IMG/VR virus record: IMGVR_UViG_3300022602_000038
Coordinates: 76,721 to 140,720 of that record
DNA: 64,000 bases
Direction: 5' to 3' (one strand)
DNA from: a virus
Shown: positions 14,225-26,499 of the stretch, in pieces
How positions within the stretch are numbered: position 1 is the first letter of the stretch
Layout: the number at the start of each line of letters is the position of its first letter
Program-made: the position numbers and the translations under genes
The notes under the pieces: generated by a model
What the model saw: only the letters and a program-made list of their open reading frames with translations
Databases searched by the model: none
Told to the model about the DNA's origin: nothing

Positions 14225-15121
14225 ATGTCAAAAACATTATTTGTTACTAGCTATTACGGTAAACTATGGAGTACGAAATTCGGTGGTAGATCTGGTAGAG
14301 AAGAAAACTACTTAAGATCTTTTGTTTCTCTAGTAAGAATGCCTGCTGATTTTGTAATTTATACTTCTGAAGAAGAAAAACCTATAATTGAAAAATTTAT
14401 AAGTGAGCATATTGTAACTACTAATAGAATTACAATTATTGTTTATAATTTAGAAAATTTCATACATCACGTAAAGATAAACAGTATACTTGGCGGGTTT
14501 AATAATCTTCAACCGGATAGATGCTTTGAGATACAGTACGGTAAATTGTATTGGTTGGAAAATCATTTAAATGAAGATTACGAAACAATTTACTGGGTTG
14601 ACATAGGACTCTCTCATATAGGTTTATGGCCACAAAAATATACATTCGGACATGACTGGTATACTAAGCAGTTTTATTTCAATATATTTAACGGAAACTT
14701 ACTAAACAACCTTAACGATAGTGTAATAAAACAAGATAAAATCTTTACTATTGCTTTAGATCAGACTATAAATAAGGGATACGGCAACGCTGCTGCAAAA
14801 TACTACACTCATAATAATTCTCATAATATAGGTAAAATACATGTTGTAGGTGGACTATTTGGCGGTACTAAAAGTAGAGTTAAAGATTTAATTACTAAAT
14901 TTAAAGAGAAAACTATACAAGTATTATCTGATGATGCTTTATATACAGAAGAACAAATACTATCTATACTTGTTACTAACGAGCCTGAACGTTATATAAT
15001 AGAATTATTTGAAAACTGGTATCATGAAGACAGTAAAGGTTTTGAACACACTCTAACAAAATATAAAAAATCTTTTTATCAAATTTTTGAAAAATATAAT
15101 AATGTTTCAAATGCAAAATAA
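14225..15121 (+). CDS. HtrL/YibB (WlaTC)-like putative glycosyltransferase
   Basis: TLFVTSYY, IYWVDIG, VVGGLFGG, TEEQIL motifs. Confidence 0.7.
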   Translation: MSKTLFVTSYYGKLWSTKFGGRSGREENYLRSFVSLVRMPADFVIYTSEEEKPIIEKFISEHIVTTNRITIIVYNLENFIHHVKINSILGGFNNLQPDRCFEIQYGKLYWLENHLNEDYETIYWVDIGLSHIGLWPQKYTFGHDWYTKQFYFNIFNGNLLNNLNDSVIKQDKIFTIALDQTINKGYGNAAAKYYTHNNSHNIGKIHVVGGLFGGTKSRVKDLITKFKEKTIQVLSDDALYTEEQILSILVTNEPERYIIELFENWYHEDSKGFEHTLTKYKKSFYQIFEKYNNVSNAK

Positions 15122-16715
15122 AGAATTTATTGTTTCTATTTATGGCTCTCATAACGCTGCTATAGCTTTTTATTATAAGGGTAAGATCGACGTTTATGAA
15201 GTAGAAAGATATGTAGGGTATAAAAACTCCGGTCTTTCTCAGTACAAGTTTATTTGGCCTACGGATATTTTTATAGATTTAATTATTAAAGACTATAAAC
15301 TAAGAAATAATATCAATCAAATACCAGATGTATTATTGTGGAGTAGAACAGACTGTAACCATAATAACACTAAATACATGTTTCATGAAAATATTGAAAC
15401 AAAAGAGTGTATACCCGGAGCATTACATCATATGGCGCATGCGAGCGGAACCTTTTACCAATCTACATTTAATAAAGCTTTAGTTATTTCTTTTGATGGT
15501 GGTGGGGAAGATGGGTTTTTTAATATCTACTTTGCAGATAGAGAAACAGGTTGCAGTCTTATAAGCAAAATAGATATAGATTTAGGTTTTGCATATATGA
15601 TTTTAGCACATTACTTAAAAGATATAAACCGAGAAAATTCATTAAGCGATGGCAATTTAATTTACTCAGGAAAATTAATGGGCTTGACCGGATACGGCAA
15701 GTTAAATCCTGATTGGCTACCAGCGTTTAAACAATTTTATTACAGCAAACCTGACGGTAATAATTATACGGAAAAAATTAAAATCCTAAAGGATGCAATC
15801 GGTGTTGATTTTAATGATATATATAGACTGAGTGGTTATACAGCATACAACATAGCAGCTACACATCAACAAGCATTTGAAGATGTGTTTTTTGAAAAGG
15901 TAGATTCAATTATAAATGATTATCCAGATTTACCTATTTGTGTAACAGGTGGTTGTGCACTTAATGTATTGTTAAATACAAATATAAAGAAAAAATATAA
16001 CAGGCAAATGTTTGTAGCTTCTAACTCAAATGATTGTGGACAAGCTGCAGGTATGTTATTAGAGTATTTAAAACCACCCACCCAAATAGATTTATCTAGA
16101 ACAGGTACCCCTATATTAGATTATGGTTCTATAGGAGAATACATGTATGAATGTAGTAATAAATGTAAAATTAGCAAAGTTACAAACAAGGAAGTAATTG
16201 AATTACTACAAAAAGGTAAAATAATTGGAGTACTAAGAGGTTTAAGTGAACATGGACCAAGAGCATTAGGTCACAGAAGTATTATTTGCGATCCAGGTAA
16301 AGAAAACATGAAAGATGTACTGAATCAGAAAGTAAAAAATAGAGAATGGTATAGACCGTTTGCGCCTATTGCATTAGTAGAAACAGCAAACAATTATTTT
16401 GATATAACTGAATATTCACCATATATGTCTTTTGCTTTTGATGTAAGAGAAGAATGGAAAAGCAAATTAAAATCTGTTACTCATATAGACGGAACAGCTC
16501 GAGTACAAACACTTAAGAGAGAAGATGATGCATGGCTGTATGATTTAATTAAAGATTTTGGTGCAAAATCCGGGTATGAAGTAATACTAAATACAAGCTT
16601 TAATGTAAACGGTAAACCTATATTAACAACTGTTAAAGACGCTTTTAAAGTATTTAATACTACTAAACTTGATTGTCTTATTATTGAAGATAATTTAATT
16701 GTAAAGAACCAATGA
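15111..16715 (+). CDS. NodU/CmcH-family O-carbamoyltransferase
   Basis: SHNAA, HHMAHA, SFDGGG, GKLMGL, GGCALN, EHGPRALGHRS, KNREWYRPFAP, HIDGTAR, LNTSFN; start taken at MQNKEF (track gives 15087). Confidence 0.95.
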   Translation: MQNKEFIVSIYGSHNAAIAFYYKGKIDVYEVERYVGYKNSGLSQYKFIWPTDIFIDLIIKDYKLRNNINQIPDVLLWSRTDCNHNNTKYMFHENIETKECIPGALHHMAHASGTFYQSTFNKALVISFDGGGEDGFFNIYFADRETGCSLISKIDIDLGFAYMILAHYLKDINRENSLSDGNLIYSGKLMGLTGYGKLNPDWLPAFKQFYYSKPDGNNYTEKIKILKDAIGVDFNDIYRLSGYTAYNIAATHQQAFEDVFFEKVDSIINDYPDLPICVTGGCALNVLLNTNIKKKYNRQMFVASNSNDCGQAAGMLLEYLKPPTQIDLSRTGTPILDYGSIGEYMYECSNKCKISKVTNKEVIELLQKGKIIGVLRGLSEHGPRALGHRSIICDPGKENMKDVLNQKVKNREWYRPFAPIALVETANNYFDITEYSPYMSFAFDVREEWKSKLKSVTHIDGTARVQTLKREDDAWLYDLIKDFGAKSGYEVILNTSFNVNGKPILTTVKDAFKVFNTTKLDCLIIEDNLIVKNQ

Positions 16716-18493
16716 ACAAAAGTCAAAGAATGTACACTAATGATCCAATAACGGTAAACACGCCTACCGTTGCGGGTACAAAAACTGTAAAAGTAGATGT
16801 TACTAATACTACCAGTGAAAATTTAACTGTAGTTACTGGTATTTGGGATCTTAAGAGAGACCAAGCTGGAGACGGATTTAAAAGACCATTTGAACATTAT
16901 ATAACTAATTTTATATCTCTTTTAAAGACAAATGTAAAAATGTATATTTACATTGAAAAGAAATACGAAAGTCTTGTATGGAAATATAGAACCCCGCATA
17001 ATACTTCAGTTCGTATTAAAGAAGTAGAAGAATTTAAAACAAACTTTAGTTTTTATGAAGATGTACAAAAAATACGTCTAAGTGAAAAATGGAGAAAACA
17101 AGCAGATTGGTTAGGTCAAAGCACACAAGCTACATTAGAGTATTATAACCCTATGGTTATGTCAAAAATGTTTATGTTGCATGACGCTGTTTGTGCAAAT
17201 CCGTTTAATACTGATTACTATATATGGTTAGATGGGGGTATTACTAACACGGTACATGAAGGTTATTTTACACATGATAAAATACTAGATAAATTAGAAC
17301 CTTGCTTAAGAAGTTTTTTATTCGTTTCTTTTCCTTACACTGGCAATACTGAGATACACGGGTTTGAAAGAACTGGTATGAACACTTTTGCTAAAGCAAA
17401 ATCCGTTGATTATGTATGTAGAGGTGGCTTGTTTGGTGGCCATAAAGATATAATTCGAAAGGCTAATAATACATATTATCATTTGCTTAATGCAACTTTG
17501 AAGCAAGGATACATGGGCACAGAAGAAAGTATTTTTACTATCATGGCTTATTTACAGCCAGATATATACAATCGTTTTGTAATACAAGATAACGGGTTGA
17601 TAAATTATTTTGCAGAAGCACTTAAAAACAATGATGTACAATTGGTAGTATCTGCTAAACCTAAAGTTAAACCCGTATTTTTAGATAAAATAAAAACCGC
17701 ATTATACGTTATTACATTTAACTCTCCAAAACAGTTTGAAACGTTAGTTGAGAGTTATCTTAAACAACCTAATTTTATTAGAGGTACTGTAAATTATCTA
17801 CTAGATAACAGTACTGATGCTAGCACTACCCCTGCTTATGCAGCTCTATGTGAAAAGTACGGCTTTGAGCATATAAAGAAAGATAACTTAGGTATATGTG
17901 GAGGTAGACAGTTCATAGCAGAGCATTTTGATAAAACAGAATGGGATTATTACATTTTTCTTGAAGATGATATGCTTTTAAAGAACTCCGATGCAAAGCC
18001 TTGTGATAACGGTTTTGTAAGTTATGTACCAGATTTATATGTAAAAGCTATTAAAATAATTGCTGGTTATGATTATGATTTTTTAAAATTTAGTTATACT
18101 GAATTTTACGGAAACAATGGCACCCAATGGGCATGGTATAATGTACCTCAAGAAGTAAGAGAAAAAAACTGGCCAGATCAATGTACATTACCACCTGAAG
18201 GTACAGATCCAAATTCGCCTCGTACACTATTTAAGAATATAAACAGTATGGAAGGGTTAGCTTGGGCAGATGGAGAAATCTATTACTGTAATTGGCCTCA
18301 GATTGTATCTAAAAAAGGTAATAAAAAAATGTTTTTAGAAACTAACTGGACGTATTACTATGAACAGACATGGATGTCTCATATGTACCAACTTACATTA
18401 AAAAATGAATTAAAAGGTGCAGTATTATTAGCTTCCCTTATTAATCATGATAGGTTTGAACATTATGACGGCTCTTTAAGAAAAGAAACGTAA
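16712..18493 (+). CDS. HtrL/YibB-like domain fused to a C-terminal GT-A (GT2-like) domain
   Basis: VVTGIWDL, YYIWLDGG, GGLFGG, GTEESIFT; then YVITFN, LDNS, NLGICGGR, FLEDD. Confidence 0.75.
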   Translation: MNKSQRMYTNDPITVNTPTVAGTKTVKVDVTNTTSENLTVVTGIWDLKRDQAGDGFKRPFEHYITNFISLLKTNVKMYIYIEKKYESLVWKYRTPHNTSVRIKEVEEFKTNFSFYEDVQKIRLSEKWRKQADWLGQSTQATLEYYNPMVMSKMFMLHDAVCANPFNTDYYIWLDGGITNTVHEGYFTHDKILDKLEPCLRSFLFVSFPYTGNTEIHGFERTGMNTFAKAKSVDYVCRGGLFGGHKDIIRKANNTYYHLLNATLKQGYMGTEESIFTIMAYLQPDIYNRFVIQDNGLINYFAEALKNNDVQLVVSAKPKVKPVFLDKIKTALYVITFNSPKQFETLVESYLKQPNFIRGTVNYLLDNSTDASTTPAYAALCEKYGFEHIKKDNLGICGGRQFIAEHFDKTEWDYYIFLEDDMLLKNSDAKPCDNGFVSYVPDLYVKAIKIIAGYDYDFLKFSYTEFYGNNGTQWAWYNVPQEVREKNWPDQCTLPPEGTDPNSPRTLFKNINSMEGLAWADGEIYYCNWPQIVSKKGNKKMFLETNWTYYYEQTWMSHMYQLTLKNELKGAVLLASLINHDRFEHYDGSLRKET

Positions 18494-20517: not shown

Positions 20518-21738
20518 TTACACATTTACAAATTTAGTCAAATCTATTTGATAACCTTTTATATATTCATCAATTACAAAATCATTCATTTTCCAAAAAG
20601 ATGTGGTTGGTTTACCGTTTATAACAGTATTAACAGCCCAACTTTTAAATCTATTACAGTTATTTAGTCTGTTTAAAGCAGCTGGTTTAGCATATTCCCA
20701 AAAAGAACTTTTAATATTATTAGGACCTGCGTAGTTGATTGCTAATAACGATTGTATTGCTTCAATATTGTTTACATACCATTCGTTTATTGCTAATGTA
20801 AGTCTACTATAATCTTCACTCCAATTTAATCTTAATATATAATCAGTCACGTTTTGCATTACATTTGTATAAAAATGTAAAGGTAAGGACATATGTGGCT
20901 CAAAAAAATGAAGTTTATTACCTAAATACAATATTCTATTATCCATTGCATTTTTTTTATAATATTGTTCCCAAGAAAACCGTCTTAACTTAGAAGCATC
21001 AATATTTTTTATTTTTGAAAAATGTTCAATTGCTTCTTCTTCGCTTGTGATATTATTATTATAAAGATATCCCCAAGTTGTTCTATGTTGTAATGGTATA
21101 CTAAACATCCACCCGTTTTTATGTACGTAAGCTCCTGTAAAGTTAAATTTATCTAAATTTTCTTTAATTTCAGGATAAAGAATTACAGAATTTACAACTT
21201 TAAAATCAGGAAACAGATATTCTTTAGAATTTAACTCTTCAGGGGTTGGAGTGCCCATACAATCTATTACAAAATCGTAGTTATATTTATCTTTAACACC
21301 AAAAACTGTCGCCGATCTTTCATCTTGCTTTATATCAATAACAGTGTCATGTATTTCTTTAAAATTATTATATAAAGCAGTTAATCTTTTTAAAGTAAAT
21401 TTACTAAAAGTGTCGCTATTAAAATTTATACCAGGTGCACTACGTACAATAAAATTTTTGCCATTTGCTTCTTCCCAAAAATATCTAACACTCCATTTAG
21501 TCGTACAATCTAATTCCGCACCTTCAGTTACTATATCAAAATTTAAAGCATGATAAAGCAGCTCGTAAATTAAAGATGTACTTGTCTCTCCAACTTGTAC
21601 TGGTGTAATGTTAGGATCGTGTATACAATGCACCTCTAAATTTTTTACTAATTTTTGTTTGGATTTTTTTAAAACTGCAAAAATTTGCAATAAAGCTATA
21701 GCACTTGCAGTGCCGTTACCGATTATACAAATTTTCAT
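20518..21738 (-). CDS. Tryptophan-halogenase-like flavoprotein (short type)
   Basis: IIGNGTAS, VGETS, conserved Lys (TTKW), IDCMG, GWMFSIP, LGNKLHFFEP. Confidence 0.8.
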   Translation of the reverse strand: MKICIIGNGTASAIALLQIFAVLKKSKQKLVKNLEVHCIHDPNITPVQVGETSTSLIYELLYHALNFDIVTEGAELDCTTKWSVRYFWEEANGKNFIVRSAPGINFNSDTFSKFTLKRLTALYNNFKEIHDTVIDIKQDERSATVFGVKDKYNYDFVIDCMGTPTPEELNSKEYLFPDFKVVNSVILYPEIKENLDKFNFTGAYVHKNGWMFSIPLQHRTTWGYLYNNNITSEEEAIEHFSKIKNIDASKLRRFSWEQYYKKNAMDNRILYLGNKLHFFEPHMSLPLHFYTNVMQNVTDYILRLNWSEDYSRLTLAINEWYVNNIEAIQSLLAINYAGPNNIKSSFWEYAKPAALNRLNNCNRFKSWAVNTVINGKPTTSFWKMNDFVIDEYIKGYQIDLTKFVNV

Positions 21739-21739
21739 T

Positions 21740-22924
21740 TTAACAAAAGTCTTTTGGTTCTAGTTTGTACCCATCAAAATAATCTTTTAATATGCTTTCT
21801 GGGTGAGACCAATAAGAGCTTACTATACCGTCCTTATTTTCCAAACACCATAATTTAAAAATTATAGAGCTATTTAATCTTTTTCGAGATTTTTCTAATG
21901 CATAATCCCAAAAAGGGCTTTTGATATTGTTAAGACCTGCGTAATTAATAGCAACCATATCTTGTAATTCTTCTACACTACGCATGTGAAATTGATTCAC
22001 CTTTAAAGAAATAGACTTAGGGTCAGGGTTATTAAAAACCTCTCCAGTAAAAAACATTAACACGTTACCATAATAATGCAGTGGCATTGCCTGGTGCGGT
22101 TCAAAAAAATACAACCTATTACCCAAGTATAATATTCTATTATCCATTGCAAGCTTTTTATAGTATTGTTTCCAAGTGAGTTTTCTTAACTTAGAAGTAT
22201 CAATATCTCTTATTTCTGAAAAATGTTTAATTGCTTCTTCTTCACTTGTAATGGTATTGTTATAAAGATACCCCCAAGTTTTTCTAGTAGTCAAAGGAAT
22301 ACCAAACATCCATCCGTTTTTATGTACATATGCGGAAGTGTATAGCTCGTCTGTTTTTATAGGCTCTGGGTATGCTATTACTGAATTTACAGAAACCCAA
22401 TCTGGTGCTTTATAATCTTTATTTGTTTCCACGTTAGGTGGTGTACCTCTACAATCTATTATATAATCATATTTATATGTATTTTTTTCGCAAGATACAT
22501 ATACATTAGAACCATCTTGAGTAATATTTGTTACGTTATCTTTTATCTTTACAAAGTTATTGAATTTTTTTTCAACTTCATCTATTACATAAAAACTGAA
22601 TTTTTCACTATTTATATGAAATCCAGGCTCATTATGGCGTACTGTAAAATTATTACCATTTGCCTCTTCCCAGAAATACTTTGCACACCATTTAAGTGTA
22701 CCATCAAACTTTGGTGCATCTCTTAATATGTCATAGTCTAAAACATTAAAGAGCGCTTTATTAACTAATCTTGAAGTGCTTTCTCCAACTTGAGTGGTAG
22801 AAATGTTAGGGTTATATATACAATGAATTTCAGCGTTTTTTAGTTTATTGAGTTTAATTTTTTCAAACAACCACAATAAAGAAAAAGCCCCTGCTGTACC
22901 TGCTCCTATTACACATATTCTCAT
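21740..22924 (-). CDS. Tryptophan-halogenase-like flavoprotein (short type), tandem paralogue
   Basis: VIGAGTAG, VGEST, TLKW, IDCRG, GWMFGIP, LGNRLYFFEP. Confidence 0.8.
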   Translation of the reverse strand: MRICVIGAGTAGAFSLLWLFEKIKLNKLKNAEIHCIYNPNISTTQVGESTSRLVNKALFNVLDYDILRDAPKFDGTLKWCAKYFWEEANGNNFTVRHNEPGFHINSEKFSFYVIDEVEKKFNNFVKIKDNVTNITQDGSNVYVSCEKNTYKYDYIIDCRGTPPNVETNKDYKAPDWVSVNSVIAYPEPIKTDELYTSAYVHKNGWMFGIPLTTRKTWGYLYNNTITSEEEAIKHFSEIRDIDTSKLRKLTWKQYYKKLAMDNRILYLGNRLYFFEPHQAMPLHYYGNVLMFFTGEVFNNPDPKSISLKVNQFHMRSVEELQDMVAINYAGLNNIKSPFWDYALEKSRKRLNSSIIFKLWCLENKDGIVSSYWSHPESILKDYFDGYKLEPKDFC

Positions 22925-23198: not shown

Positions 23199-23343
23199 AT
23201 GTGTTGTTTTGTTGAGAACCGCAGCCCGGAGGCTTTGGTTGTTGTGCTAGATGTTGTCACTAGCACAAATATTTACTCAAGATTTTCCTATAACAATAAA
23301 AATATCCATAGGAATAAACTATCACTTCTATTTGGATGATAAA

Positions 23344-23419
<76 letters not shown>

Positions 23420-23451
23420 TAAATTTGTAATACATTTACAAATATGCAAAA

Positions 23452-23536
23452 TGGTGGGTACACTTGGACTCGAACCAAGGAAGCTGTGAAGCAGCAGATT
23501 TACAGTCTGCCGTAATTGCCGCTATACGATATACCC
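23452..23536 (-). tRNA. tRNA-Tyr(GTA)
   Basis: gcaga-CTGTAAA-tctgc anticodon arm, long variable arm, GGTTCGAGTCC, ACCA end. Confidence 0.95.
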
Positions 23537-23548
23537 AAAAAAAATGTA

Positions 23549-23652
23549 ACGGCTATAGGTTGCAAGCTCGAGTGCCAATTCGTTGATACCGTAAACAGAA
23601 AGGTGAAAAAAGTTTACATCCTTGATCCCTATAGTGTCACCTTAACAGCCGT
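23549..23652 (-). ncRNA. Unassigned structured RNA between tmRNA and tRNA-Tyr
   Basis: Closing helix acggc+ctatagg / cctata-gccgt, internal gtaaac/gtttac hairpin, 7-nt AAGGTGA/TCACCTT long-range pairing, followed by a U tract. Confidence 0.6.
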
Positions 23653-23656
23653 AAAA

Positions 23657-24039
23657 TGGTGGACCTGAGGGGAGTTGCACCCCTGTGTTCCGTAACGTTC
23701 TTACCAGTTTCTACAAGCTTAGCACTATTATTAAAGTGTATACCCATAGTGCTGATATACAAGTTGTTTGGTAGTGTTCCTGCTATTCTACTACCATTGA
23801 ACAGTCAGTCTCGCTGAATGACGATTACAATATATAGCGAGAATCTATACTATAACCGATCGAGCTTAAGCAGCTGCGAGTGCGAAGCTTTCGCTGAATG
23901 AAAGAGATTCTTTCACAGAAGCGACTGCGTTCTTGAGGCTTTGAATAATGCCGGTTGTTTTTGTAGTAATTTATAAAGGATTTACTAATCCTGCTTGCTT
24001 CTAATACATCTGCCACAGAGTCGAATCTGGTACAGGCCC
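23657..24039 (-). ncRNA. ssrA: tmRNA
   Basis: 5' GGGCCTG...GATTCGAC; 3' T-arm and CAGGTCC-A-CCA with G3:U70; internal tag ORF ending FALAAA-stop. Confidence 0.95.
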
Positions 24040-24083
24040 ATTAAAATATGTTAAAGAACAGTAAGTAATATAATATATTTACA

Positions 24084-24497
24084 ATGAATAGCAACTTAAA
24101 AGTACTATCAGAACAATATCAATTAATGATTGAAAAACGCGTTCAACCTGATCCAACTACAGAAGAATCTCTTATACAGTTTTTAGATAAAAGAGCTGCA
24201 GGAGCTGCTAAGATTGCACACAGTGCTAAGGAAAAAGGCGGTTTTAGTACATTAACCGCTATTCACTTTGCAGCAAAAGCTAAACCTTATGCAGAGTGTG
24301 AAAAAATGGAAAACGCTCCTAATAAAGATTGCGATAGAGCCAACGCTCATTATAAGAAAAAAGCTGAAGAGTTACACACAAAACTAGCAGATTTAGATAA
24401 ACTAACTCAAAAAGAGTTTCAAGCTCTTATGGGTGAGTTAGAAGTTTACGGGGAAGTCTATATACGCGCTACAAAGCCAAACAGCTTAAAGATTTAA
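24084..24497 (+). CDS. Hypothetical protein (possible internal head protein)
   Basis: 137 aa; TAAGTA at 24062; N-terminal LSEQY...MIE. Confidence 0.7.
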   Translation: MNSNLKVLSEQYQLMIEKRVQPDPTTEESLIQFLDKRAAGAAKIAHSAKEKGGFSTLTAIHFAAKAKPYAECEKMENAPNKDCDRANAHYKKKAEELHTKLADLDKLTQKEFQALMGELEVYGEVYIRATKPNSLKI

Positions 24498-24907
24498 AAA
24501 GTAAATTCGTAATCTTTAGCGTATTTTGTATTTTTAGTTTGCTTATTTTTTAGTTCTCTTACTCTTAAGCATAAGCTTTGTTTTGTATTTTTTAATACAT
24601 TGAGCGGTATATTATAAAACATATCTGTATCTGGGCAATACACAATAAACAAATCAACGTTCTTGTCACTGTACACAATACGGGTTTTACTTTTATTGTT
24701 TTGTTGTTTGATTTTACTAATGCCTTTTATTGTACCATCAACAAGTTTACGCGATTTAATCTGTACCCGTTTATAAGAATTATTATATCTCACGAGGAGA
24801 TCGTGTTGTAAGCCGCTGTTAATAACGTTACAAACTTCTATATTATTTTTAATACATAGAAGTATAAATTTTTGTTCAGCAATATCTCCAATAACTCTTC
24901 GATCCAT
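24494..24907 (-). CDS. Free-standing PD-(D/E)XK endonuclease (group I intron-associated type)
   Basis: GDIAE...HDLLV...RVQIKS...Y....VDLFIVY motif. Confidence 0.8.
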   Translation of the reverse strand: MDRRVIGDIAEQKFILLCIKNNIEVCNVINSGLQHDLLVRYNNSYKRVQIKSRKLVDGTIKGISKIKQQNNKSKTRIVYSDKNVDLFIVYCPDTDMFYNIPLNVLKNTKQSLCLRVRELKNKQTKNTKYAKDYEFTF

Positions 24908-24912
24908 ACTAT

Positions 24913-26499
24913 TTAATATCTTTCAGAAAGATAAGAAAGAAGTGTTTTGTGATTGATTAAAGATGATCTTACAAGTTGAATATTTTTTATATATTTTTGT
25001 AATTGAGCTTTATATCTTATTTTTCTAATACCTATATTAAATGAGTCAAAAGCTTCTTTTGCTTTTTGACAGTCATAAAAATTAATACCTGTACCTACTT
25101 GCAACCAACTGTCTATAGTAAAGTATATATTATTTATACCACTCTCTGTTACGTTAGATAATATTAATGCGTCGTTATTATCAAGAAGTTTTTGTACCAT
25201 TTCAGGTGCTTTATTATTTGTATTAAAATTTGCCCAAAAAGGTGTATCCGTTCTTTCAGTTAAATAATGAAAATAGATGAAATTTAAAATCTCTTGATTT
25301 AGTTTTAATACAGAATCGTTGTAGGATTTCATTTGATACGGGTCAGAGAATATTAAACCTCTTATATGTTGAGAAAAATATCTTAAAGACGATATGGTAA
25401 CCCATATAGATGTAGCTTCAAGTGGTTCTATAAAACCAGCTGCAAGCCCAATAGCGACACAGTTTTTTATCCAGGGGGTTTCGTATTGACCAGCTTCAAA
25501 TGTGAACTGCCTGTTTATAACCGTATCTGTTCCTGTATATTCATCAATTTCTTTTTTAATACTCTCGTCATCAATCTGATTACTATCAAATACATACCCG
25601 CACCCATATCTATCCTGTAAAGGTATTTTCCACATCCAACCATATTTCATAGCTATAGCTTCTGTGTATGGTGGTATTTCACCATTTTTAATTGGTGAAA
25701 AAAACGTCATACTTTTATTTACAGGTAAATATTCTTTATAACTTTTCCAGTTATTATTAAAAAAATCCCCTATAATTTTACGTTTAAAACCTGAACAATC
25801 AAAGACAAAATCACACCTTATTGTAGGGTCTGCATTTATTAATGTTAAAGAAGTTATATTACCTTCTTTATCGGTATTTATTTTACTTACCGTGCTTTCA
25901 ATTACTTTAATATTTCTTGCTTTACCTACAAATTTTAAAAAATCTGCAAGCATAACTGCATTAAAATGTAATGCATATGGTCCTAAGATATCAAAATGAT
26001 ATGTATTATCTTGAGTTTTGTTTTCAATATTACTGCTTACTACGAATTTTGTTGTGTAATCTTCACAAGTAATATATGTAAGGTCTATTTTATTTAAAGG
26101 CTCTCTGTTTGCTATTCTTTCTAAAGCTTCTAATGATAATATACTTTGACCTATAGTTGTATTTTGATTATAATTTACACTATAATTATCTGTACTGAAT
26201 CCGTGATAGTAATATTTATTATCGCCGTTCCAGTTGGTAAATTTAATACCGTTTTTTATAGTACCACCAGCGTGCTTTACAATATCACTTGCTGAAATGT
26301 TTAACTCTTGTAAAAAATTTACTAAATGTGGTGTTGAACCTTCTCCGGCTCCTAGAATTCCTATTTCAGAGCTTTCTATAAGCGTTATACTTACATTTGG
26401 GTATTCTTTACGTAAAAATAAAGCTGTCAACCAGCCTGATGTACCACCTCCAACTACTACAAATTTGTAATCTTTACTGTCAAGGTTATTAAAGGCCAT
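24913..26499 (-). CDS. Flavin-dependent halogenase (PrnA/tryptophan halogenase family)
   Basis: GGGTSG, GAGEGSTP, IKNGI (catalytic Lys), DCSGF, GWMWKIP, GFIEPLEATSI. Confidence 0.9.
   Translation of the reverse strand: MAFNNLDSKDYKFVVVGGGTSGWLTALFLRKEYPNVSITLIESSEIGILGAGEGSTPHLVNFLQELNISASDIVKHAGGTIKNGIKFTNWNGDNKYYYHGFSTDNYSVNYNQNTTIGQSILSLEALERIANREPLNKIDLTYITCEDYTTKFVVSSNIENKTQDNTYHFDILGPYALHFNAVMLADFLKFVGKARNIKVIESTVSKINTDKEGNITSLTLINADPTIRCDFVFDCSGFKRKIIGDFFNNNWKSYKEYLPVNKSMTFFSPIKNGEIPPYTEAIAMKYGWMWKIPLQDRYGCGYVFDSNQIDDESIKKEIDEYTGTDTVINRQFTFEAGQYETPWIKNCVAIGLAAGFIEPLEATSIWVTISSLRYFSQHIRGLIFSDPYQMKSYNDSVLKLNQEILNFIYFHYLTERTDTPFWANFNTNNKAPEMVQKLLDNNDALILSNVTESGINNIYFTIDSWLQVGTGINFYDCQKAKEAFDSFNIGIRKIRYKAQLQKYIKNIQLVRSSLINHKTLLSYLSERY

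Follow-up and report, generated by a model that had tools for sequence, protein, structure and literature searches.

What is the short RNA that lies between the tmRNA gene and a tRNA-Tyr gene on the minus strand of a phage genome, and what might it do there? The window analyzed here is a stretch of 64,000 nucleotides from IMG/VR record IMGVR_UViG_3300022602_000038. The record is 140.7 kb long, is estimated by CheckV to be 65% complete and has a G+C content of 32-33%. Its DNA polymerase is of the T4 type and shares 30-32% identity with those of cyanophage, pelagiphage and Sinorhizobium T4-like phages; the carrier is a distant T4-like myovirus. BLASTN against 50,697 phage records revealed no close cultured relative, the tRNAs alone being matched, and the element itself or a podovirus copy of it found no match in the same records even at E ≤ 1. 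The stable-RNA island and the genes around it are arranged as follows (positions in the window).

24913-26499, minus strand: flavin-dependent halogenase-family gene (Trp_halogenase, E 3.9e-99)
24494-24907, minus strand: PD-(D/E)XK endonuclease gene (PF11645, E 4.7e-23), beside the RNA island
24067-24094, minus strand: promoter-like site TTGCTA-16-TATATT (consensus match only), upstream of the tmRNA
23657-24039, minus strand: tmRNA (RF00023, 68.8 bits), ending in CCACCA at 23657, 4 nt upstream of the element
23653-23656, minus strand: UUUU spacer from the tmRNA to the element
23549-23656, minus strand: At1-family RNA ("X"), matching positions 1-108 of the RF02496 model; the element counted from ACGGC covers 23652-23549
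between the element and tRNA-Tyr, minus strand: spacer of 12 nt, TACA followed by T8
23452-23536, minus strand: tRNA-Tyr (GTA), called by ARAGORN and Rfam, 12 nt downstream of the element
23344-23419, minus strand: tRNA-Met (CAT), called by ARAGORN and Rfam, the final RNA gene of the cluster
21740-22924, minus strand: halogenase-family gene (Trp_halogenase, E 2.8e-25)
20518-21738, minus strand: halogenase-family gene (Trp_halogenase, E 2.6e-25)
16712-18493: HtrL/YibB-like gene, directly after the following gene
15087-16715, plus strand: Nol-like carbamoyltransferase gene (phrog_1601, E 2.6e-117)

The tmRNA is missed by ARAGORN and called by Rfam. The three halogenase-family genes that flank the island are paralogous, and the endonuclease gene is placed as homing-type nucleases are in other phage tRNA clusters, e.g., segB in T4. 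The carbamoyltransferase and the HtrL/YibB-like gene look like a sugar- or nucleotide-modification module of the phage. A consensus scan of positions 23200-24200 returned zero terminator-like sites, so none lies inside the tmRNA-X-tRNA cluster, and the promoter-like site at 24067-24094 is the candidate start of a common transcript. Co-transcription of the element with the tmRNA and the two tRNAs, as the first-pass annotation had proposed, is plausible because of this promoter-like site upstream of the tmRNA and the lack of a terminator-like site in the interval scanned; the four RNAs would form one apparent transcription unit. The coordinates and pairings first reported for the element, including its start 4 nt after the tmRNA CCA and the U tract behind it, are all present in the sequence.

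When scanned against Rfam 15, the element matched RF02496 (Atu_At1, "Rhizobiales sRNA") over the full length of the model (1-108 of 108) with 63.3 bits and E-values of 3.7e-08 over the whole window and 4.6e-10 locally; the whole virus record gave the same result. All helices of the model are present and zero non-canonical pairs were flagged. The element had been presented as an unassigned, novel ncRNA whose novelty would be lost on a match to a known family in an Infernal/Rfam search. That match is now found and the novelty is gone; the description as a real pseudoknotted ncRNA stands. The curated gathering score of RF02496 is 60 bits, and the window copy lies just 3 bits higher; membership was therefore tested independently on relatives. 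The first motif derived from the alignment retrieved 19 viral contigs, all of them RF02496 matches (60.7-88.4 bits), a second one at least 120 bacterial genome loci and 40 viral contigs, and a looser one 105 viral contigs with 95 distinct copies. Among 77 non-redundant sequences 33 alignment columns are invariant, and the window copy has all 33. The junction sequence is likewise invariant from Rhizobiaceae to low-GC phages. The taxonomic label "Rhizobiales" does not fit the window copy, whose carrier is a phage; the label is too narrow and needs changing, and the membership in RF02496 stands.

The window copy shares with Rfam Atu_At1 the same helices and the motifs UUUU..UUUC (loop), CAACGAA..GGCA..CGAGC and ACC. 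It differs from other At1 RNAs in being encoded by a phage, in its G+C content (about 42% versus 60-65%), in the length of P1 (5 bp versus a terminal helix of 11-14 bp), in the pseudoknot strands (AAGGUGA/UCACCUU versus AACCGGA/UCCGGUU), and in being embedded between tmRNA and tRNA with no promoter of its own. Neither ARAGORN nor the Rfam tRNA model detected a cloverleaf in the element, and both called only the flanking tRNA-Tyr and tRNA-Met, in line with the first statement that it is not a tRNA.

The following structural features were assigned to the element, all on the minus strand.

23648-23652: P1, 5' strand ACGGC, pairing with 23549-23553
23549-23553: P1, 3' strand GCCGT
23647-23646 with 23636-23635: P2 (2 bp), whose loop holds the 5' strand of the pseudoknot
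23637-23643: pseudoknot, 5' strand AAGGTGA
23600-23606: pseudoknot, 3' strand TCACCTT, in the 15-nt loop of P4, with invariant UUUU and UUUC flanks
23628-23633: P3, 5' strand TATAGG, pairing with 23554-23559
23621-23624: P3b, 5' strand CAAG, pairing with CTTG at 23563-23566
23590-23618: P4 hairpin TGTAAAC/GTTTACG (23618-23612 with 23596-23590, 15-nt loop)
23566-23589: invariant core with P5 and its CAACGAA (23585-23579), GGCA and the unpaired CGAGC (23570-23566)

The pairings CTATAGG/CCTATAG and ACGGC/GCCGT together close the molecule. The predicted overall fold consists of the terminal helix P1, a three-way core (P3/P3b, P4 and P5), and a kissing pseudoknot of 7 bp that joins the loops of P2 and P4. 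So folded, the RNA would display the invariant unpaired nucleotides UUUU/UUUC, GA, CAACGAA, GGCA, CGAGC and ACC. The minimum free energy of the single sequence (-22.6 kcal/mol; z = -0.48 versus shuffles) is not beyond chance. Since this value is ordinary, the structure is unproven by the sequence alone, and its support is supplied by homology and covariation.

For the covariation analysis the 77 non-redundant sequences were aligned with MAFFT and a hand-written structure (P1, P2, pseudoknot, P3, P3b, P4 and P5) was imposed. Paired cells amount to 95.8%, versus 77.1% after column shuffling and 37-45% when the partners are slid by 1-3 columns, and 26 of the 36 pairs show changes on both sides. 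All seven pairs of P1 (alignment columns 17-23/122-128) covary. The pseudoknot, first proposed from the exact complementarity of its two strands in the window, reaches 99.3% pairing, and five of its seven pairs show compensatory change; homologues and covariation, the check suggested for it at the time, bear it out. Its variants include AACCGGA/UCCGGUU, AAGCGGA/UCCGCUU, AAAUCGG/CCGAUUU, AGGUUGG/CCAACUU and AAGCUAG/CUAGCUU, next to AAGGUGA/UCACCUU in the window. Compensatory changes were also found at 4 of 6 pairs in P3, at 3 of 4 in P3b (99.7% paired) and at 7 of 7 in P4, the helix formerly described as a GTAAAC/GTTTAC hairpin with a pyrimidine-rich loop. The GCA-CTCGAGC-TTGC arm of the first-pass annotation is not conserved; its place is taken by P3b (CAAG/CTTG) and the small CAACGAA hairpin P5, with CGAGC invariant and unpaired. 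Rfam draws the first hairpin (P2) with 4 bp. Its two inner pairs compete with the pseudoknot and show zero compensatory change, one of them being unpaired in 17 of the 77 sequences, and the 4-bp version was rejected. Because the competing inner pairs lack compensatory change, the 7-bp kissing interaction is the better model. A coding reading was rejected as well: the open frame differs between rhizobial and podovirus copies, stops interrupt it in the window copy, and the covariation fits an RNA.

At least 95 distinct copies are found in phages, and about 8 of 95 adjoin tRNA or tmRNA genes. In the lineage of the window (with contigs L002-L004, L013, L014 and L016) the element begins 4 nt past the CCA of the tmRNA, and tRNAs or an ORF come next. 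On L185, a contig of 27% G+C, a minus-strand copy (L185:7392-7498, 57.2 bits) lies 16 nt upstream of the tmRNA (L185:6994-7375). The linkage to tmRNA exists in two gene orders, that of L185 being reversed relative to the window. Two further copies (L184:162-272 and L247:2688-2798) run antisense within arrays of 13-18 tRNAs, squeezed between two tRNAs; at these loci a promoter-like sequence, TTAGAA-16-TAAATA, extends over the antisense of the adjacent tRNA. Podoviruses of alphaproteobacterial hosts carry copies as well, some with a portal protein about 39% identical to that of Rhizobium phage RHph_TM3_14A and others of the Roseobacter, Pelagibacter and Puniceispirillum phage types; L017 and L169, fragments that are 13-17% complete according to CheckV, were grouped with this setting. 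Here a -10-like hexamer lies ~7 nt before P1, giving the RNA its own sigma70-like promoter, and another promoter stands immediately behind the RNA. The RNA was not found in the cultured relatives RHph_TM3_14A and phiM6.

A group of phages with ~40% G+C (L183:2512-2618 and about 50 similar loci, within L180-L252) carries a variant in which P1 is missing. It scores 47.6 bits, and current annotation misses it because this is under the RF02496 cut-off. Between the stop codon of the preceding gene (endolysin, holin, Dps-like, 50-aa basic protein and others) and the core of the variant lie 0-7 nt, and a terminator comes after the core. The 50-aa lysine-rich basic protein (phrog_16028, e.g., L009:5237-5389) adjoins the RNA in 31 viral loci and in three arrangements. 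Its relatives in metagenomes number at least 8000, all unnamed, and usually occur without the RNA in arrays of tiny genes (DUF6496, DUF6321) near the terminase. As an obligate partner it was rejected, the family being very large and the RNA being present in 0 of 20 sampled loci of the protein.

The founding member, At1, was described by Wilms et al. (2012, PMC3384568) in Agrobacterium tumefaciens C58, between atu5055 and atu5056 on the At plasmid. It is a discrete RNA of 113 nt in dRNA-seq and a single band of 115 nt on the Northern blot, with the strongest signal at high optical density. A literature search found no publication naming "Atu_At1" or "RF02496" and no published function of the family; nothing relevant to it was found in Lee 2013, the Hfq RIP-seq paper and the 50-genomes ncRNA paper. 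By BLASTN the RNA is located on 50 plasmids of Rhizobium, Agrobacterium, Shinella, Sinorhizobium/Ensifer and Phyllobacterium. A genome scan added Sphingomonas/Sphingopyxis, Devosia, Brucella/Ochrobactrum, Inquilinus and Flavobacterium-type genomes, with 1-3 copies per genome and three in the Agrobacterium genome that was searched. The distribution is patchy: under strict filters the RNA was detected in none of 150 further Alphaproteobacteria and in 2 of 150 further Bacteroidota that were sampled.

The motif GGAAC-N15-18-[ACG]TT, which we take to be the consensus of the EcfG/RpoE2 general-stress promoter, precedes 75 of 99 non-redundant bacterial copies versus 29 of 1980 background windows. In the Rhizobiaceae the distance from the end of this promoter to the invariant G of P2 is constant at 18-22 nt; relative to P1 the promoter lies about 10-15 nt upstream (loci L021-L149). 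The start of transcription is thereby placed at the base of the extended P1. The placement agrees with the stationary-phase expression of At1. The promoter is missing from the sphingomonad copies and from a subgroup with TGGGATG upstream; these copies may use another sigma factor.

A terminator-like hairpin follows 23 of the 99 bacterial copies within 120 nt (about 5-60 nt), making these stand-alone units, and in one synteny group (21 loci) the RNA and terC converge. Many other bacterial copies lie 15-60 nt upstream of an ORF on the same strand with no terminator in between. The same-strand genes downstream encode DJ-1/PfpI (9 of 76), LigD (4), LuxR-type response regulators (4), PNPOx-like proteins (2), EEP nucleases (2), alpha/beta hydrolases (2), DUF892, DUF763 and TspO. 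In Bacteroidota the copies lie among genes for DJ-1/PfpI, OsmC, PNPOx-like proteins, TspO and a disulfide reductase. Clustering of the flanking ORFs for a conserved partner yielded synteny groups only (terC, CitMHS, SDR, TetR and GluRS). The family is tied to general-stress gene sets in two phyla, with no single partner gene.

These neighbourhoods bear on the view that the RNA works in cis, as a leader or 3' element, be it a riboswitch-like aptamer or a put-like antiterminator, that controls read-through into what lies downstream, here the tRNAs via the T8 tract. The rhizobial transcript would begin at the base of P1, immediately downstream of the EcfG promoter, many copies stand 15-60 nt before stress genes (ligD, EEP nuclease, PNPOx-like, alpha/beta hydrolase), a PNPOx-like gene comes next after the RNA both in a Shinella plasmid and in a Bacteroidota genome, and terminator-like hairpins follow the 23 bacterial copies as well as many of the phage copies that abut stop codons. 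Yet the downstream genes are heterogeneous, the 21 loci convergent with terC have nothing downstream to control, and the phage copies precede another promoter, tmRNA or tRNAs, or close an operon. A conserved expression platform was not found, nor was a terminator-like site in the window cluster, and At1 accumulates as a discrete RNA of 115 nt (PMC3384568). Control in cis is accordingly considered unlikely.

Small self-cleaving ribozymes, including the HDV-like theta ribozymes, are compact and pseudoknotted, abut phage stable-RNA genes and have a patchy distribution. The element could be a new self-cleaving ribozyme or processing element that cuts at or near its own boundary, releasing either the 3' end of the tmRNA or the precursor of the tRNAs in this phage and trimming mRNA ends elsewhere. 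It has a compact pseudoknotted core with invariant junction nucleotides, a patchy, multi-copy and phage-rich distribution, and a placement against functional RNAs or stop codons; the 3' end of At1 is defined although many copies lack a terminator. Against this, neither boundary of the RNA carries a conserved nucleotide, copies directly behind a promoter would have nothing to cut off, and the single full-length band of At1 argues against internal cleavage (PMC3384568). Unlike in the theta type, the 5' and 3' ends of At1 RNAs pair together and there is no nested double pseudoknot. The dRNA-seq protocol used for At1 reportedly relied on 5' ligation and poly(A) tailing, which argues against 5'-OH or 2',3'-cyclic phosphate ends. 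The Rfam search of positions 23300-24100 under permissive filters gave no match to ribozyme, riboswitch or Y-RNA families at E ≤ 1, with zero matches to the hammerhead, HDV-like, twister, twister-sister, pistol and hatchet models, which agrees with the first failure to fit hammerhead, HDV, twister and pistol cores by eye. Self-cleavage is on balance quite improbable.

About equally improbable is that the RNA works as a conventional base-pairing sRNA, with mRNAs regulated via the conserved loops that it exposes. At1 was classed as an sRNA gene of A. tumefaciens and is growth-phase regulated (PMC3384568), and control by EcfG is shared with the stress sRNA GsrN. GsrN of Caulobacter is EcfG/SigT-dependent, enriched in stationary phase and uses a C-rich loop for base pairing; the homologues proposed for it in rhizobia are neighbours of the ecfG-nepR-phyR locus (PMC5869019). 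Like GsrN, At1 is an EcfG-dependent small RNA of Alphaproteobacteria; it differs in its location at other loci, its pseudoknotted core and its presence in Bacteroidota and phages. Most of the At1-family RNA is locked in a covarying tertiary fold, and its unpaired segments are invariant from Alphaproteobacteria to phages of ~27-40% G+C although the targets would differ. The Hfq RIP-seq paper on A. tumefaciens does not mention At1 in its main text.

Ro and Y RNAs are known from some phages that have tRNA/tmRNA clusters, and the element might be a partner of the Y-RNA type for a Ro60 (Rsr) protein or an RtcB repair module. Like the At1 family, bacterial Y RNAs (YrlA/YrlB with Rsr/Ro60) are stress-linked, highly structured, free ncRNAs. 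At L023:1552-3108 (minus strand), on a Shinella plasmid, a copy is located just after rtcR, with a gene for a 518-aa hypothetical protein and rtcB on the opposite side; the 660-nt gap at this locus could hold Y RNAs. This neighbourhood occurs once in more than 100 contexts. The At1-family RNA has no Ro-binding stem and no tRNA-like domain or T-arm, it is not matched by the Y_RNA and YrlA models, and genes for TROVE/Ro, RtcB and SmpB were not found in the 140.7-kb record, which is 65% complete. A Y-RNA-like role is highly improbable. The first guesses at function (Y-RNA-like decoy, processing element or ribozyme) have gained no positive evidence and are unsupported, because no TROVE/Ro or RtcB gene was found, At1 runs as a full-length band, and most relatives lie far from tRNA and tmRNA genes.

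The reading preferred here, with a probability of roughly one half, is that of an autonomous structured RNA that would be released from the tmRNA-X-tRNA precursor, act in trans and bind a conserved partner. Unrelated transcripts hold the same core at their 5' or 3' side, internally or in antisense; this is most simply explained by an RNA whose function sets in after release or does not depend on what flanks it. The element would be transcribed together with the tmRNA and the two tRNAs, and host tRNA-processing enzymes would then free it, with RNase P cleaving at tRNA-Tyr. Endo- or exonucleolytic trimming may remove the AU-rich spacers of 4 nt and 12 nt back to P1. The free, stable RNA would act in trans, its rigid pseudoknot-locked fold binding a conserved cellular partner, probably a protein complex or possibly a small ligand. 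In cellular members this partner would be part of general-stress or stationary-phase physiology, and the phage copy may mimic or supply the host RNA during infection. A universal partner fits better than seed pairing with mRNAs because the loop and junction sequence is invariant across phyla. The strongest arguments for action in trans are that the core does not depend on its context, that At1 accumulates as a discrete transcript, that some bacterial copies stand alone, and that loops and junctions are invariant. The weakest points of this reading are the still hypothetical partner, the many leader-like bacterial copies, and the P1-less copies in mRNA 3' ends. As the phage copies that abut stop codons have no P1, not every member of the family is a free RNA closed by a terminal helix. 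The patchy distribution of the family, in multiple copies and linked to phages, is one that small self-cleaving ribozymes typically share, and it counts against the trans-acting reading.

A parallel to the position of the element is found in T4, where the stable RNAs C and D (rnaC and rnaD; species 1 and 2) are likewise small, close the phage tRNA cluster and abut a tRNA gene (T4 annotation). The RF02496 model gave no match at E ≤ 1 on the rnaC/rnaD region. Homology to these RNAs was rejected, there being no relation in sequence or structure; the analogy is one of context only.

It is possible, if doubtful, that the family represents a functionally new and widespread class of RNA, e.g., a small ribozyme, a ligand-sensing aptamer, or a binder of the ribosome, RNA polymerase or RNA-decay machinery that reprograms it under stress. 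Such a class would have been captured repeatedly by unrelated phages (T4-like myoviruses, alphaproteobacterial podoviruses and the ~40% G+C group) and twice linked to tmRNA. Orphan RNAs of like profile (raiA, OLE, ROOL/GOLLD and HEARO) have repeatedly proved biochemically unusual. If this were true, the Rfam entry would be a mere name for an undiscovered mechanism.

New here are the membership of phage copies, the linkage to tmRNA in two gene orders, the much broader family range, the pseudoknot backed by covariation, the general-stress promoter and the P1-less variant. The 2012-13 Rfam entry for a plasmid-borne "Rhizobiales sRNA" describes an RNA of complex fold under the alphaproteobacterial general-stress sigma factor, which also occurs in Bacteroidota. 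Phages carry it too: three or more unrelated groups, with five different placements in the transcript. Its genetics are tractable, with few copies each in A. tumefaciens and S. meliloti. For large phages, the At1-family RNA is a third kind of cargo in stable-RNA islands, besides tRNAs and tmRNA, and it may offer a handle on the interference of phages with host stress or dormancy.
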